Positions 1,102 to 47,487 are shown, counted from the first letter of the stretch. The stretch is 64,000 nucleotides of DNA from Candidatus Cloacimonadales bacterium (GCA_963665815.1 OY762463.1:2080001-2144000); one strand, 5' to 3'. Numbers and translations: made by a program. The notes: generated by a model from the letters alone, not told the origin.

Positions 1102-2220
1102 TTAAAAACCCCAATTCGTTCTATTTGATGATGGGAAGAAATCTCTACCACAAGGATCAATTCTTAACATTGTCCCATCAGGATATCTCCATGTAGAATC
1201 AAATCCGTAATAGTCTCTATAATAGTTTCCAATACTATATCCCATTTGCCCCATTATGTAATTGCATGATCCAACTGCATCCTGTTCAATAGAGGGGCCT
1301 CCTATACTTTTGTTAAGATCCATTCCTAAATCTTTCAATAAAAATGAATGACCTCCTTTCCTGTCCTGATACTCATGAACCAACTCGTGTGTAAAATTCT
1401 GAAAGGGAGTCTGGGAACTAACTTCACTAAAGGCAGGTATTCTGAAAACTGGTGAGGTAATTATGTGCTCATTGTCCCAGACAATTAAGGACTCATTCCC
1501 ACCATTATAAAAAGATAAGCCTTTATACTTTGTTTCATTTAGAGGAGTTTTCGCGAAATACAAAGTATGGTCATCATAATTAGTTCCCTCCTTCGTAAAA
1601 CTGCTGTTTGTAAGAATCTCATTCCTCATTAAAGTACTAGCCTGACCTGCACAAAATAGATTGAGAGTAAGGCTTTTAGCAACGTCAATTGCAAACTTAA
1701 ACTTTTGCTCCTCGGACTCACCTCCGCAGAATTCAACAATTGCAAATCGGTGGAAAGGATGTTCCCCTTCTTCCGAGTTTGATGATAATCCATATTTTGA
1801 GATGAACTGAGTTGCAGAATCTATTCCAGCATCCGAAAGTTCTGAAACAAACATATCCATCAAATGTTGTAATGTAATAGTATAGTCATCAATACTCAAT
1901 GAGCGATCACTATCTGTATCAGATTTCATTGAACGAATCCTTCTTCTAAGTGCTTCTTTGTCTTTTTCAGACCCATTATACACTCCTTTCACTCTCTTAT
2001 CTTCTCCGTAAATCTTGTTTAATTTTTTAATTGCAGATTCTAAATGCCAATTAGCAAAATACAATATATGTTCATATTCTATATAATCAAAATATGATTC
2101 AAACTCAGCCACATAATCCCAGCCATCGCCACTGGTCTGTATATTGCTTGGTATAAGGAACTTACTGGCATACTTAGCATACTGTTCCTGACGATATGTT
2201 AATGAGAGTGCTCCGTCAAG
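1102..2220 (-). CDS. Orphan RHS C-terminal toxin tip with HExxH zinc-metallopeptidase motif
   Basis: The frame is open from 2220 (LDGALSLTYRQEQYAK, matching LDGAISLSYRQEQYAK of the 3317-aa RHS). Contains FTHELVHEYQD and a downstream EQDAVGSCN. An in-frame TAG at 2221-2223 sits at the hairpin-insertion junction. Confidence 0.8.
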   Translation of the reverse strand, partial: LDGALSLTYRQEQYAKYASKFLIPSNIQTSGDGWDYVAEFESYFDYIEYEHILYFANWHLESAIKKLNKIYGEDKRVKGVYNGSEKDKEALRRRIRSMKSDTDSDRSLSIDDYTITLQHLMDMFVSELSDAGIDSATQFISKYGLSSNSEEGEHPFHRFAIVEFCGGESEEQKFKFAIDVAKSLTLNLFCAGQASTLMRNEILTNSSFTKEGTNYDDHTLYFAKTPLNETKYKGLSFYNGGNESLIVWDNEHIITSPVFRIPAFSEVSSQTPFQNFTHELVHEYQDRKGGHSFLLKDLGMDLNKSIGGPSIEQDAVGSCNYIMGQMGYSIGNYYRDYYGFDSTWRYPDGTMLRIDPCGRDFFPSSNRTNWGF

Positions 2221-2224
2221 CTAT

Positions 2225-2295
2225 GAGCTCGCAGGACGAAGTCCGAGAGTCTCCACTCCGAAGTTCGTAGGATTCCGATCCGAGAACCATAGGAG
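2225..2295 (+). repeat. GNA/GA hairpin element, 2 units
   Basis: GAGCTC-GCA-GGAC-GAA-GTCC-GA-GAGTCTC followed by GTTC-GTA-GGAT-TCCG-ATCC-GA-GAAC. Confidence 0.9.
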
Positions 2296-2380
2296 ACACC
2301 TTATTTATTAGCAGGATTGTTACCGCAATATACATACGGACTGTCAAACTGCTCTGCCGGGTCAAGAGAATGCCAACAAA

Positions 2381-2407
2381 GAGCTCGGAGCCTTAGGCGA
2401 GAGTCTC
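2381..2407 (+). repeat. GNA/GA hairpin element, 1 unit
   Basis: GAGCTC-GGA-GCC-TTA-GGC-GA-GAGTCTC, inserted at the G-R-W codons of the stub. Confidence 0.85.
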
Positions 2408-2507
2408 CCAAAACCTATTTGCGGGTCAAGGAACCGTTTTCCCCAATATATCCAGTTCAAGCCGTGTTCGTCAATAATTTCTCTGTTTTTCAAAACCTGG
2501 AGAAGAT

Positions 2508-2530
2508 AAAGCCTGCACGTGGCAGGCTTT
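2508..2530 (-). terminator. Probable intrinsic terminator after 2535-3815
   Basis: AAAGCCTGC-ACGTG-GCAGGCTTT inverted repeat just past the stop codon. Confidence 0.55.
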
Positions 2531-2534
2531 GGAT

Positions 2535-45285: not shown

Positions 45286-45344
45286 TCCATCCTCCTTACT
45301 CCATAATATGGCAAAATTGAGCTCATTAGTAGTAAATGGTCAAG
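45281..45344 (-). promoter_or_regulatory. Repeated cassette leader E
   Basis: CTTGACC..TGCCATATTATGGAGTAAGGAGGATGGATTG (TTG at 45285). Confidence 0.75.
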
Positions 45345-45363
45345 AAAATTATGGTTCAGACAG

Positions 45364-45390
45364 AAAAAGCCAGAAAACGTGTTTCTGGCT
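45364..45390 (-). terminator. Repeated cassette terminator, copy 5
   Basis: AGCCAGAAA-ACGTG-TTTCTGGCT. Confidence 0.75.
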
Positions 45391-45415
45391 ATATATATTT
45401 TTTGCAAGAGTTGAA

Positions 45416-46591
45416 CTACTTTTTCTGTTCTTTCAAGTATTTTTCTTTAAGTTCAAGCAATGCTTCTTTTTCTCCCTTCTCATAGAATCTATAATCCAGC
45501 CAATAGTCCCAGTCTCCTGTAAATGTTGAAAAATCCGTTAAAGCTCTTTTAAACCATTTCATAGCCTCTTCTTCATTATTTATGCTATAATTTAAGTAGG
45601 CAAGATGCATAAACATTCTTTCATAATTCTGAAAATAAGTCTTTTTTTTATTGTAACTTTCATCTAAATCTTTCACCAGCTTTGTTATGCAATTTTCTGT
45701 ATTAATAGTCTTACGCAGTAATCTGCTTTCAATAGTTCTATCTGGACCATAATAAAGCCAAGATGTTAAAAATTCATCAATGAGAAAATCATGGGGAAAT
45801 TGAGCTTTCTTAAACTGAAGCTGCATTAAAGCAAAGAAAAATCCAAACATTCCACCATTTACTACTTCATCTTTAGGTTCAAATTGGGTTTTGAAATAGT
45901 AACTGTACATTTCAGGAAATTTGCCTAATCTTCTTAGTGTATAACATTTCATGATATTATAGAAATTAAACTCTTTAATAATTTGCAGGTTAATATTCTC
46001 TGATGAATATATTTCATCATTTTGCTTTTTTCTTAAAGCAATTGCAATTATTCTGAATCTTTCAAGCTCTTCTTCAATAACTTCATATTCTTTCATTTTT
46101 GCAAGATTGAAAAAGAAGTAACGGTATGGGACCAAATTTACTTTAAAGTACTCAGACAAAAGACTTTCTAAACTTTCATTTGATTCTTTTCCTCTTGAGA
46201 GTACATTTTTCCTAATCTCTAATAAATGAATATAGAAATACATGATATAACTTCCGGGATCATTTATGTTATGATAGTACATTTGCACATCATCAACGCC
46301 AAATTCCTCGAAACTGATAGGTTTCACTTTTAAAGTATCAATTCCTGATGCTATTAATCTATCAAGCTTGCTGTTTTCGAAAGTCAATGCTTTCTTAATA
46401 TCTGCATCTGCAATTTGATAATGTTCTATCAATGAATACATCATTTCTCTGTTAGCTTTACTATTATGTGCAAATATTTTTTTCAGTAGGTCAAAATCGT
46501 TCCCAAGATAGTCGTCTCTAATACAGTTCAGTAGAGATGAACAAGATATGATGAATATAAAAGCGACGATTTTTGTAATTTTTTTTCTCAT
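45416..46591 (-). CDS. Exported helical (TPR-like C-terminus) protein, putative immunity
   Basis: MRKKITKIVAFIFIISCSSLLNC signal-like start; HLAYLNYSINNEEEAMKWFKRAL; follows the toxin tip. Confidence 0.65.
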   Translation of the reverse strand: MRKKITKIVAFIFIISCSSLLNCIRDDYLGNDFDLLKKIFAHNSKANREMMYSLIEHYQIADADIKKALTFENSKLDRLIASGIDTLKVKPISFEEFGVDDVQMYYHNINDPGSYIMYFYIHLLEIRKNVLSRGKESNESLESLLSEYFKVNLVPYRYFFFNLAKMKEYEVIEEELERFRIIAIALRKKQNDEIYSSENINLQIIKEFNFYNIMKCYTLRRLGKFPEMYSYYFKTQFEPKDEVVNGGMFGFFFALMQLQFKKAQFPHDFLIDEFLTSWLYYGPDRTIESRLLRKTINTENCITKLVKDLDESYNKKKTYFQNYERMFMHLAYLNYSINNEEEAMKWFKRALTDFSTFTGDWDYWLDYRFYEKGEKEALLELKEKYLKEQKK

Positions 46592-46667
46592 TTCTAATCC
46601 TTTTCTATTAGAGTTTTCCTTTAAAATCATCCCAAATATTGTAATAGAAATTATCTAATCCCATTTT

Positions 46668-47429
46668 TCATAATATTGTGGCATATCCTCTAACTTTTTT
46701 GTTACCAGCCATCAATGAAGCATATGAGGTAGCTCTTTGCGATAATTTCAGAGCTGGATATTTAGTTTTCAAACTCAGTTTATCAGTGCCAATCATTGTT
46801 CCCCCAACAATAATTCGCTTAACATTAATTGTGTTAATCACAGAAATACATGTATCAATGTTGTCTTCTTGTACTTCAGTTAGTGTGTTATCTTGATTTA
46901 GCTGTGATTTAAGACCTTGTAAATCAGCTTTTGTTTTAGACAGTTCCCATTTATGGTGTCCTGAAGTTTTTACATCCAAATCCCCTTCAGAATCTTCTAT
47001 TGTTAGACCGTCAATGTACTCCATGCAAGCATTTCTAAGCTCCTCAGGTGTATTTATATCACTCAAATCTTCATCGGATAGGACATAATATAATGCATCA
47101 CATTCTTCGAAATAGTATTCACAATTAATAATTACACTTGCTTCAATAGCCCCATCCGGATCAAGGAAGTTCACCGGATCGTTATGGCAATACACATACG
47201 GACTAAAGAACTCATCAGCCGGGTCAACTGCCATCCAGCGTCCGAGTTGTGGATCGTAATGTCTTAAACCGTAATGGAAAATATCCAGTCCTAAATCATC
47301 CTCCAATTCTTTTCCGTTATAGAGGAACTTGTTTTCCTGCCCGGTATCTGTGGACATTCCGCCTAACCTCATCCCAAACGGGTAATAGTGGTCTTCCTGA
47401 AAATTCGTTACGTTATTGCCTACGAACAA
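46668..47429 (-). CDS. Orphan RHS stub plus toxin tip (cassette F), intact and without hairpin insertion
   Basis: QEDHYYPFG..NGKELEDDLGLDIFHYGLRHYDPQLGRW..DPVNFLDPDG; TTG 47429 after AAGGAGG (ATG 47447 is also in frame). Confidence 0.85.
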   Translation of the reverse strand: MFVGNNVTNFQEDHYYPFGMRLGGMSTDTGQENKFLYNGKELEDDLGLDIFHYGLRHYDPQLGRWMAVDPADEFFSPYVYCHNDPVNFLDPDGAIEASVIINCEYYFEECDALYYVLSDEDLSDINTPEELRNACMEYIDGLTIEDSEGDLDVKTSGHHKWELSKTKADLQGLKSQLNQDNTLTEVQEDNIDTCISVINTINVKRIIVGGTMIGTDKLSLKTKYPALKLSQRATSYASLMAGNKKVRGYATIL

Positions 47430-47487
47430 TTCTCCTCCTTGCTCCATAATATGGCAAAATTGAGCTCATGTGTGGATAATGGTCAAG
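47426..47487 (-). promoter_or_regulatory. Repeated cassette leader F
   Basis: CTTGACC..TGCCATATTATGGAGCAAGGAGGAGAATTG. Confidence 0.7.

Follow-up and report, generated by a model that had tools for sequence, protein, structure and literature searches.

A putative pilus-derived machine encoded beside signal-peptide-bearing RHS toxins in Candidatus Cloacimonadales and related lineages: a candidate export route

This report concerns a stretch of 64,000 nucleotides (the window) from the genome of Candidatus Cloacimonadales bacterium (GCA_963665815.1, OY762463.1:2080001-2144000), and in it an operon of ten genes for a pilus-like machine with a secretin, which lies between two operons for rearrangement hotspot (RHS) toxins. 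The association of this machine with RHS genes is far beyond chance, and the linkage is real and strong. We give a probability of about 0.55 to the reading, drawn from gene content and arrangement, that the machine is a dedicated outer-membrane apparatus for the export or display of Sec-exported RHS toxins resembling the BC part of toxin complex (Tc) toxins. This reading is supported by the linkage, the shared strand of machine and toxin genes, the signal peptides and common N-terminal module of the toxins, a Skp-like chaperone in the operons with split toxins, the lack of type VI secretion system (T6SS) genes, and the precedent of the Xanthomonas bacteriocin Bcn-A.

The genome of the window (G000; the window is G000:C1:2080001-2144000) is closed, comprises 3.96 Mb and is 98.7% complete. 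A scan of positions 1-47.5 kb yielded 32 open reading frames (ORFs) of at least 100 aa, which were compared with Pfam and NCBIfam (E <= 0.01). The machine genes form a tight operon on the plus strand (approximately 15254-24448) in the order G-K-I-J-F-E-D-MN-O-P, and adjacent genes overlap or lie 3-18 bp apart; the secretin, the GspE-type ATPase and the GspF platform are encoded by consecutive genes of this one operon (Pfam). A preliminary description, made from the sequence alone, had proposed such an operon of pilin, GspF, GspE, secretin and PilMN/O/P genes, and the family matches bear it out. The operon comprises the following genes.

15254-15667, plus strand: pilG-like major (pseudo)pilin (ORF 15143-15667, likely start 15254); class III signal G/FSLME; no cysteines.
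15671-17011, plus strand: pilK-like large minor pilin, 446 aa; PilX_N 22.2 bits (below the cut-off of 25.5); no Glu5.
17004-17351, plus strand: pilI-like minor pilin; N_methyl E 6.6e-05; GspI 26.7 bits, under the cut-off.
17309-17821, plus strand: pilJ-like minor pilin; N_methyl E 3.5e-06.
17818-18900, plus strand: GspF/PilC platform protein, 360 aa; T2SSF E 1.6e-54.
18890-20062, plus strand: GspE/PilB-type assembly ATPase, 390 aa; T2SSE E 3.7e-132; CxxC...CxxC motif.
20068-22155, plus strand: secretin, 695 aa; Secretin E 1.5e-45; N0, STN and Secretin_N domains; Lys-rich N-terminal linker.
22119-23444, plus strand: PilM/N-like fusion, 441 aa; PilN E 2.7e-12, residues 351-437 only.
23441-23959, plus strand: PilO; E 4.9e-07.
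23978-24448, plus strand: PilP/GspC-sized protein, 156 aa; no family match, the name resting on its position and on homologues conserved at other loci.

The two RHS operons on either side of the machine operon encode proteins with signal peptides, and each is headed by a protein with the motif WPDYVF (WPD1 and WPD2). The machine operon is divergent from the operon of WPD1 and RHS3317, with which it shares the intergenic region 14891-15253, and convergent with the array of orphan RHS C-terminal cassettes (24748-30500, minus strand) of the second operon, which runs in the order WPD2, Skp/OmpH, lipoprotein, TcB1721, RHS1350 and cassettes. This arrangement had been proposed in the preliminary description, with coordinates of the divergent intergenic region that proved exact. 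A promoter and terminator scan of positions 13700-25400 gave 42 promoter-like sites against 42.5 expected and is uninformative. The genes of the two operons are as follows.

13787-14890, minus strand: WPD1, 367 aa; signal peptide, variable beta-rich middle, conserved C-terminal helical/coiled-coil domain; no Pfam or NCBIfam match.
3819-13772, minus strand: RHS3317, fused TcB/TcC-like RHS toxin, 3317 aa; RHS core at residues 2882-2958 (TIGR03696 E 9e-12).
41329-42432, minus strand: WPD2, 54% identical to WPD1.
40800-41318, minus strand: Skp/OmpH-like periplasmic chaperone; OmpH E 2.8e-26.
40115-40819, minus strand: lipoprotein, 234 aa; no known family, unnamed Bacteroidota clusters in the Atlas.
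34939-40104, minus strand: TcB1721, TcB-like half; signal peptide, common N-terminal module, Gly/Ser-rich stretch, terminal RHS repeats (RHS_repeat E 6.2e-06).
30874-34926, minus strand: RHS1350, TcC-like half; signal peptide, DUF6443 (E 2.6e-24), RHS repeats, core (TIGR03696 E 1.5e-16), C-terminal toxin domain.
29706-30500, 27532-28293 and 25909-26793, minus strand: orphan RHS C-terminal fragments (TIGR03696 E 1.7e-14, 1.3e-08 and 1.9e-15, respectively).
28507-29693, 27053-27457 and 25569-25898, minus strand: small membrane or unknown ORFs after each fragment (RDD match), putative immunity genes.
24748-25260, minus strand: DUF5071 gene of the cassette array.

The linkage of machine and toxin genes was followed through 232 species genomes of Cloacimonadota, in which a match of at least 660 bits was taken as a secretin orthologue and all such loci were mapped. 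Secretin orthologues (47-52% identical within the phylum) occur in eight genomes at nine loci, the PilM/N-like fusion in six genomes, WPD in 11 and the RHS core in 34. At all 11 machine loci, i.e. the nine secretin loci and two partial loci on short contigs (G071, G005), an RHS gene lies in the same stretch, and WPD accompanies 10 of the 11, the exception being a contig that begins inside the RHS gene (G031). RHS cores are found in 8/8 genomes with the machine compared with 26/224 without it (Fisher p = 9.9e-8, uncorrected for kinship), and neither of the two other pilus loci of G000 is linked to RHS (0/2). Among the 17 RHS-core matches in G000, only two lie in frames of more than 1000 aa, and these are the two that flank the machine operon.

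Gene order varies between the Cloacimonadota loci. In both copies of the locus in G194 all genes are on one strand in the order G-K-I-F-WPD-E-D-(MN-O)-P-RHS-cassettes, a gap of 31 bp separating the PilP-like from the RHS gene; in G116 and G129 a Skp-lipoprotein-TcB-RHS operon is divergent from (F-)WPD-E-D; and in G162 and G001 WPD-RHS stands ahead of E-D-MN-O-P-G-K-I. The two copies of the machine, WPD and RHS genes in G194 are near-identical and lie on two contigs (L026, L027), with WPD proteins of 237 and 334 aa. In the partial locus of G005 (L021:2954-4171), GspF is split into three ORFs of 242, 81 and 73 aa, and because of this split the machine may be decaying there.

Beyond the phylum, a secretin-alignment scan with one genome per species gave 79 loci, which were mapped by phmmer with the proteins of the window, supplemented by Pfam and homology checks of large unassigned ORFs and by RHS-core searches of the genomes concerned. 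Full-length secretin orthologues (33-51% identity) came only from lineages of the Fibrobacteres-Chlorobi-Bacteroidetes (FCB) type, namely Cloacimonadota, Balneolaceae/Rhodothermales, Bacteroidota, Ignavibacteria, Zixibacteria, KSB1, Kryptoniota and, with a single record, Fibrobacterota; they are common in genomes of the Balneolaceae type. Loci of D-E-F-G order in Syntrophales, Nitrospirota and others gave weaker matches (20-31%). In a protein search, the homologues of the secretin were metagenome proteins only, named PilQ, GspD or 'secretin and TonB N-terminal domain'. RHS and/or WPD genes were present at 15 of the 17 FCB loci outside Cloacimonadota with full 10-kb flanks; counted here are one locus with the match at 19 kb (L052) and two in which ORFs truncated at the end of the locus are followed, 13-15 kb downstream, by RHS cores (L042, L043). 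A further 15 FCB loci are on short contigs, five of them positive (L047, L056, L058, L062, L063), and none of the 39 distant secretin loci had an RHS, TcB or WPD match (phmmer only).

An independent sample of 401 genomes, taken evenly across the phylum to which one Bacteroidota carrier belongs, was searched for secretins of at least 520 bits, and 27 loci were found in 25 genomes. All 25 carriers have an RHS core, compared with 136 of the 376 other genomes (Fisher p = 3.7e-11, again uncorrected for kinship). At 23 of the 27 loci the core is on the contig of the secretin, at a distance of 0.5-18.5 kb (median 9.2 kb), and in 23/23 of these on its strand (22 by computed coordinates; G235 as read from the map of L046). 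Genomes with a single RHS core (G384, G487, G439, G236) carry that core beside the machine. Secretins of intermediate score (267-343 bits), in the gene order J-F-G-small ORF-E-D, were not beside RHS cores in the genomes checked (G331, G438, G574, G578, G600). Linkage of homologous operons to RHS genes had been set beforehand as the test of the preliminary proposal, and it was found at 11/11, 23/27 and 15/17 loci compared with 0/39 distant ones; it holds through at least five gene orders and at least five phylum-level lineages.

The toxins encoded in the window display all features of RHS/YD-repeat polymorphic toxins, i.e. repeats, core, a variable C-terminal domain and orphan cassettes. The RHS core (TIGR03696) was found in RHS3317, RHS1350 and five orphan pieces, with a DPxG...DP...SPY..NNP motif visible. 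RHS3317 has a signal peptide, the common N-terminal module and a C-terminal domain with an HExxH motif; in the Protein Data Bank (PDB) its core matches SGS1 (1.4e-16) and YenC2 (7.5e-07), and RHS2 and TccC2 too. Signal peptides were recognised, visually and by means of a crude script, as a basic n-region ahead of a hydrophobic h-region: signal-peptide-like N-termini are present in RHS3317, TcB1721, RHS1350, WPD1 and WPD2, as had been described previously for these five proteins, and in 18/18 linked RHS/TcB proteins with a complete N-terminus (17 by script, one by eye). One common N-terminal module, of approximately 250 residues, was found in 15/15 aligned linked RHS/TcB-like proteins from five lineages (alignment A3). 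Its profile matches mosquito SGS1 (1.9e-13) and SGS4 (4e-07), residues 35-215 of YenB (1.4e-03) and TcdB1 (0.14); Pfam SpvB matched none of the scanned window ORFs at E <= 0.01. Because the module profile matches YenB and the core matches YenC2 and TccC2, the cargo is probably, by sequence comparison, Tc-BC-like, fused or split, and apparently without TcA. The pair of a Skp-like protein and a lipoprotein also stands ahead of the TcB-like genes in G116, G129 and L033.

No PAAR, VgrG, Hcp, TcA, CdiB or PilT family was found among the 32 ORFs, in agreement with the preliminary description, and VipB/TssC and PAAR (PAAR_motif) are absent genome-wide from the closed genome. A search of G000 for TcA with VRP1 (PF03538) was without match, but control genomes were equally silent.

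A direct repeat of approximately 90% identity was found at positions 24258-24530 (3' end of the PilP-like gene and the hairpin downstream) and 30575-30850 (directly after the stop codon of RHS1350). Its copies bracket the 6-kb orphan cassette array, which suggests that a machine operon and an RHS gene, at one time directly convergent, were separated by insertion or expansion of the array. Three more frames with RHS cores (579, 538 and 624 aa) lie to the left of the window (G000:C1:2067682-2077923) and extend the cassette array of RHS3317. In Bacteroidota, a 3104-aa teneurin-like protein (TTR, FN-plug, NHL, YD-shell; L126:6245-15559 in G345) ends 1.6 kb upstream of a machine secretin, and 12 glucodextranase-B-like repeats precede its teneurin-like set.

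The machine operon is one of three type IV filament systems in G000, over which five ATPases of the T2SSE family and three secretins are split. A canonical type IVa pilus (T4aP) locus approximately 40 kb beyond the right end of the window encodes a pilin, PilT, PilM, two ORFs at the PilN and PilO positions, a PilP-like protein (T2SSC match), PilQ, a 568-aa PilB with an MshEN domain, and PilC. The third system (L002, G000:C1:3568001-3588000) is accompanied by a histidine kinase, a sigma-54 activator, a response regulator, a TPR protein and an HDOD protein. PilT-like ATPases are encoded at these two other pilus loci, and the single prepilin peptidase of the genome is located at 3.86 Mb, so that the machine operon is without its own. 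Since G000 has a canonical T4aP and a third system besides, the operon in the window is an extra, accessory machine.

The type of the machine was assessed with curated models, the equivalog scores of which were missed for both families: GspE 542 against 630, GspF 276 against 424, GspD 196 against 351 and GspG 44 against 89 bits for the Gsp set, and PilB 526 against 676, PilQ 230 against 284 and PilC 243 against 700 bits for the Pil set. The pilG-like protein matches N_methyl (E 3.2e-07) and ComP_DUS (E 3.9e-08), and scores under the cut-off with Myxococcus PilA as well (71 bits). The ComP_DUS match was rejected as a sign of competence, because the ordinary T4aP pilin of G000 matches too. Typing of the ATPase by its top PDB match was also rejected, the scores for PilB (417 bits) and EpsE (396 bits) being too near to separate. 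The ATPase lacks the N-terminal N1E domain by which GspE binds GspL (the alignment with the GspE model begins at position 108); its orthologues outside Cloacimonadota have 464-549 aa and a longer N-terminus. The machine ATPases form one clade (SH-aLRT 98), apart from the clade of D-E-F-G loci (100), which served as outgroup, in a quick IQ-TREE tree of 77 rows that was rooted on PilT and holds neither named reference type II secretion systems (T2SS) nor other reference systems.

Four pilin-like genes are present, for a putative major pseudopilin and putative K, I and J minor pilins; the scores with the GspI and GspK models are both under their cut-offs, and the K pilin is without Glu5 yet modelled as ComZ-like, not GspK-like. 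The T4aP set of PilM/N/O/P/Q, PilB, PilC and pilin is complete, with M and N fused, and with the PilM part and PilP lacking family-model support: the N-terminal ~280 residues of the fusion have no PilM family match in Pfam, and its topology is GspL-like (~280 cytoplasmic residues, a transmembrane segment and the PilN domain). PilT is encoded neither in the window locus nor in the related loci mapped. Because the ATPase clade neighbours T4aP PilB and stands apart from the D-E-F-G loci, the machine is probably of a T4aP-derived type that would work like a T2SS, rather than a Gsp-family T2SS. The preliminary description as a T2SS-like machine stands for the set of components, and would be revised for the descent of the ATPase.

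The pilK-like protein was modelled with AlphaFold2 (AF2; pLDDT 84, pTM 0.83) as a pilin helix with a beta-solenoid domain. Its top match with Foldseek is Thermus ComZ (6qvi; E 1.2e-05, TM-score 0.21-0.23 for the whole chain), and the comparison in VIA gave Z 10.8 for 212 aligned residues (rmsd 3.8), many beta-helices being matched at Z 10-13. The orthologues of the pilK-like protein comprise 424-489 aa (627 aa in L046) and are present in most mapped loci.

The WPD proteins occur twice in G000, both inside the window. The C-terminal 118 residues of WPD have 325 homologues of 201-643 aa, mostly unnamed; the domain is found widely in Bacteroidota, joined to many different heads, some of the homologues having YadA-head, discoidin, SprB or PTL_trimer domains. 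The whole-protein model of WPD1 (AF2, pLDDT 65) is confident only at residues 280-367; no Foldseek match in the PDB was obtained at E <= 0.001, and in the Atlas WPD falls in unnamed Bacteroidota clusters only (the nearest named one, at 0.83, is a lead only). When residues 255-367 were modelled in three copies, the homotrimer scored 0.94 compared with 0.00 for the best of three controls, with at least 94% of contacts agreeing between runs and a partner pLDDT of at least 90; the score mark used here is reached by 20/30 proteins solved as one-chain pairs and by 1/23 single-chain proteins, a calibration from which this run departs by its own alignment and three copies. The model supports a homotrimer, which would fit a fibre with a C-terminal coiled coil. 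Together with the machine, WPD is found in the Cloacimonadota loci and at 4/32 other FCB loci, those four all Balneolaceae-like, and it is therefore a lineage-specific partner. The suggestion that WPD stands in for TcA or VgrG does not apply generally, considering this distribution, the many other heads on its C-terminal domain, and a sister species (G119) that keeps WPD without the machine.

Further ORFs on the minus strand of the window are related to the RHS arrays or lie near them:

44654-45285, minus strand: orphan RHS C-terminal piece in two frames.
46668-47447, minus strand: orphan RHS C-terminal piece (TIGR03696 E 2e-19).
45416-46630, minus strand: 404-aa ORF, no family.
2535-3815, minus strand: ORF downstream of RHS3317, no family match.
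1102-2112, minus strand: second ORF downstream of RHS3317, 336 aa, HExxH motif, no family match.

An HExxH motif is thus present in both the C-terminal domain of RHS3317 (3819-4900) and the ORF two genes downstream, and these motifs may mark toxin domains of the metallopeptidase type. Pfam at E < 0.01 gave no match for 3819-4898, 30874-31503, 1102-2112, 2535-3815, 28507-29217 and 45416-46630. A beta-propeller protein (SBBP-type) with a type IX secretion tail is encoded at 42625-44277; matches to it recur beside machine or WPD genes (L028, L030, L022, L042, L054, L057) and may rest on the common tail or repeats. Leucine-rich repeat (LRR) proteins with signal-peptide-like N-termini are encoded downstream of the big RHS operon both in G000 (window 3-1160) and in G119 (L013:8738-15649). 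At one locus, from a bacterial metagenome-assembled genome, a 670-aa protein with an HHH_3 (ComEA-like) domain is encoded directly upstream of the machine ATPase (L036:1065-3077).

For the function of the machine as a dedicated exporter, the following sequence of events is proposed, in which every transport step, including periplasmic folding and passage through the secretin, is inferred. Signal peptides would bring the RHS proteins into the periplasm, either fused (RHS3317) or split (TcB1721 and RHS1350), where they would fold, the split form probably aided by the Skp-like chaperone and the lipoprotein. The ATPase, on the GspF platform and the PilMN/O/P scaffold, would polymerise a short filament of the pilG-like protein, capped by the K, I and J minor pilins, of which K would bear the ComZ-like beta-solenoid; the filament would then push or carry the toxin via the secretin to the cell surface or into the medium. 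The conserved N-terminal module of the linked RHS proteins would be the likeliest recognition element. Trimeric WPDYVF fibres would be an added partner in Cloacimonadota and Balneolaceae, and may tether the toxin or bind the target. Tentatively, and at somewhat less than even odds, this may be a separate secretion route, i.e. a pilus-derived machine conserved in at least five FCB lineages and dedicated to Sec-exported Tc/teneurin-like RHS toxins, in which the beta-solenoid tip engages the N-terminal module and the toxin is expelled via the secretin or presented on the filament, with targeting by WPDYVF fibres in some lineages.

Several observations weigh against a dedicated exporter. RHS cores occur without the machine in 26/224 Cloacimonadota genomes and in 136/376 genomes of the Bacteroidota sample. 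The sister species G119 (100% complete) has an operon of WPD and RHS (2951-aa frame), followed by LRR genes, with neither a secretin orthologue (E <= 1e-30) nor a PilMN match, and because it retains WPD and RHS in this way the machine is not obligatory for its RHS type. The fully flanked locus L049 and the doubtful Fibrobacterota locus L041 have no RHS gene on their contigs, and at four of the 27 Bacteroidota loci, all fragmented (G515, G256, G251, G241), the RHS cores are on other contigs. With its mass of 150-370 kDa, a folded RHS cocoon would just fill or exceed the lumen of known secretins. The machine ATPases are sister to the canonical-locus PilB of two carrier genomes (SH-aLRT 88, weak), and the sole pilin among the structural matches of the pilK-like protein is the competence pilin ComZ.

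The last two observations also favour a real pilus that serves contact, adhesion or DNA uptake, is co-regulated with RHS killing and transports no toxin, in a module pairing killing with DNA uptake or with holding, as do the weak ComP_DUS match of the pilG-like protein, the coverage of the ComGA model by the short ATPase (261 bits, cut-off 300) and the ComEA-like gene directly upstream of the ATPase in L036. We regard such a pilus as the main alternative, though an unlikely one: the ComP_DUS match is shared by an ordinary T4aP pilin and the ComEA-like gene is confined to one locus, PilT is lacking from every mapped locus while G000 already has a complete T4aP with PilT, the RHS genes are co-directional with gaps down to 31 bp, and the RHS proteins with signal peptides would still need a route across the outer membrane. 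It is improbable that the cargo to be exported or anchored by the machine consists of other proteins, such as WPDYVF fibres or beta-propeller proteins, and that RHS genes share the operon through one programme of antagonism. WPD does lie between GspF and GspE in five Cloacimonadota loci (G116, G129, G192 and both copies in G194), in a Balneolaceae locus (L061) as many as four WPD genes stand in tandem after that of the pilin, and matches to the beta-propeller protein with the type IX tail recur in several loci; however, WPD is absent from 28/32 FCB loci outside Cloacimonadota, where RHS is nearly always present, and the beta-propeller proteins point to a different exporter because of their type IX secretion tail.

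Very improbable, in our estimation, is the absence of any functional coupling, with RHS loci and a pilus-like operon travelling together on a mobile island and RHS genes accumulating at recombination hot spots. The distribution of the machine is indeed patchy (8/232 Cloacimonadota genomes, in six families), G000 and G119 are heavily rearranged around these loci (by tblastx the flanks in G119 map to distant parts of G000, and the borders of the island are unreadable), the locus is duplicated in G194, and a direct repeat flanks the cassette array. Against it stand the linkage through the various gene orders and lineages, with RHS core and secretin invariably on one strand at the linked loci of the Bacteroidota sample, and the position of the lone RHS gene of single-RHS genomes beside the machine; in addition, no integrase or transposase family was found among the 32 scanned ORFs, and no tRNA gene in the window.

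A dedicated RHS exporter of this kind has relatives among described systems. The 'T2SS of Bacteroidetes', which according to the available part of Denise et al. (2019, PMC6668835) clusters with T4aP and was suspected to be an independently derived secretion system, resembles the machine in its components (secretin, GspE-like ATPase, GspF, major and minor pseudopilins, L/M/C-like proteins), in its FCB lineage and in its phylogeny with T4aP rather than with the Gsp T2SS; it differs in that the ATPase of the window is without the N-terminal domain. For the system of Cytophaga hutchinsonii (chu_3191-3201), a cellulose-use and adhesion phenotype has been described, with the order F-G-prepilin peptidase-E-D for chu_3199-3195 (Wang et al. 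2017, PMC5553014); 'Rhs' occurs nowhere in the text of that paper. The gene order is G-K-I-J-F-E-D-MN-O-P, with no peptidase, in the window and minor pilins-F-G-prepilin peptidase-E-D-C-L-M in this Cytophaga type; one RHS-linked Bacteroidota locus (G333) has its own A24 prepilin peptidase and the Cytophaga order F-G-peptidase-E-D.

Precedent also exists for the route. The 1398-aa RHS bacteriocin Bcn-A of Xanthomonas is found in the supernatant, and its activity is lost in an xpsD mutant (Marutani-Hert et al. 2020, PMC7259588, available text); 180 Xanthomonas and 56 Ralstonia Rhs toxins are linked to gspG, with a prediction of T2SS export that the preprint, in its available text, calls functionally unconfirmed (bioRxiv 10.1101/2025.05.08.652813). 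Like the cargo of the window, these toxins are tied to a secretin or pseudopilin gene. They differ, as far as the available texts describe them, in belonging to Proteobacteria with a housekeeping T2SS encoded elsewhere, in having gspG alone reported beside the toxin, and in the lack of any described partner of the WPDYVF, Skp or lipoprotein kind. The route therefore has a precedent in the T2SS-secretin-dependent RHS secretion of Xanthomonas, and the lineage of the machine has been noticed before; the earlier statement that it was not a characterised route was too strong in this respect, and holds insofar as linkage of RHS genes to a complete machine of the pilus-like kind was described for no FCB bacterium in the literature searched, which did not extend to subscription journals. 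'DUF6443' did not occur in that literature, and Zhang et al. (2012) use 'T2SS' as a label for signal-peptide toxins, the available text being without the words secretin, pilin and pilus.

The cargo is like the Tc toxins (YenB/YenC2 of Yersinia entomophaga) in being probably BC-like, in both split and fused forms, and unlike them in its Sec signal peptides and in the absence of a TcA family among the island ORFs; the release of Tc toxin in Yersinia is by lysis dependent on the type X secretion system (T10SS; Sitsel et al. 2024, PMC10847048, available text). With T6SS Rhs effectors it shares the RHS shell, the polymorphic C-terminal toxin, orphan cassettes and (putative) immunity genes; it differs in that the window system has no PAAR domain, G000 has no VipB/TssC, and signal peptides are present. 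The pilK-like protein, by its model, has the pilin helix and beta-solenoid of Thermus thermophilus ComZ (6qvi), whereas the identity is only 10-11%, the TM-score is low, and no DNA-uptake genes are linked in the window. Mosquito SGS1 (8fjp; 3364 aa compared with 3317 aa) is the best solved relative of both the RHS3317 core and the common N-terminal module, ahead of the Tc subunits; SGS1 is a eukaryotic protein, and the match bears on neither its origin nor its function.

The exit of RHS/Tc-type toxins from diderm cells without a T6SS is largely open, the known answers being T10SS lysis in Yersinia and the general T2SS for one Xanthomonas bacteriocin. The machine described here is a candidate for such an exit route, complete and self-contained and travelling with the toxins in Cloacimonadota, Bacteroidota (including Balneolaceae), Zixibacteria, Ignavibacteria and related lineages. 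For the 'T2SS of Bacteroidetes' lineage, suspected by Denise et al. to be an independent secretion system, it points to a possible cargo, and the conserved N-terminal module of the toxins is a candidate export signal; the question of export thereby becomes testable by knockout in a cultivable carrier.

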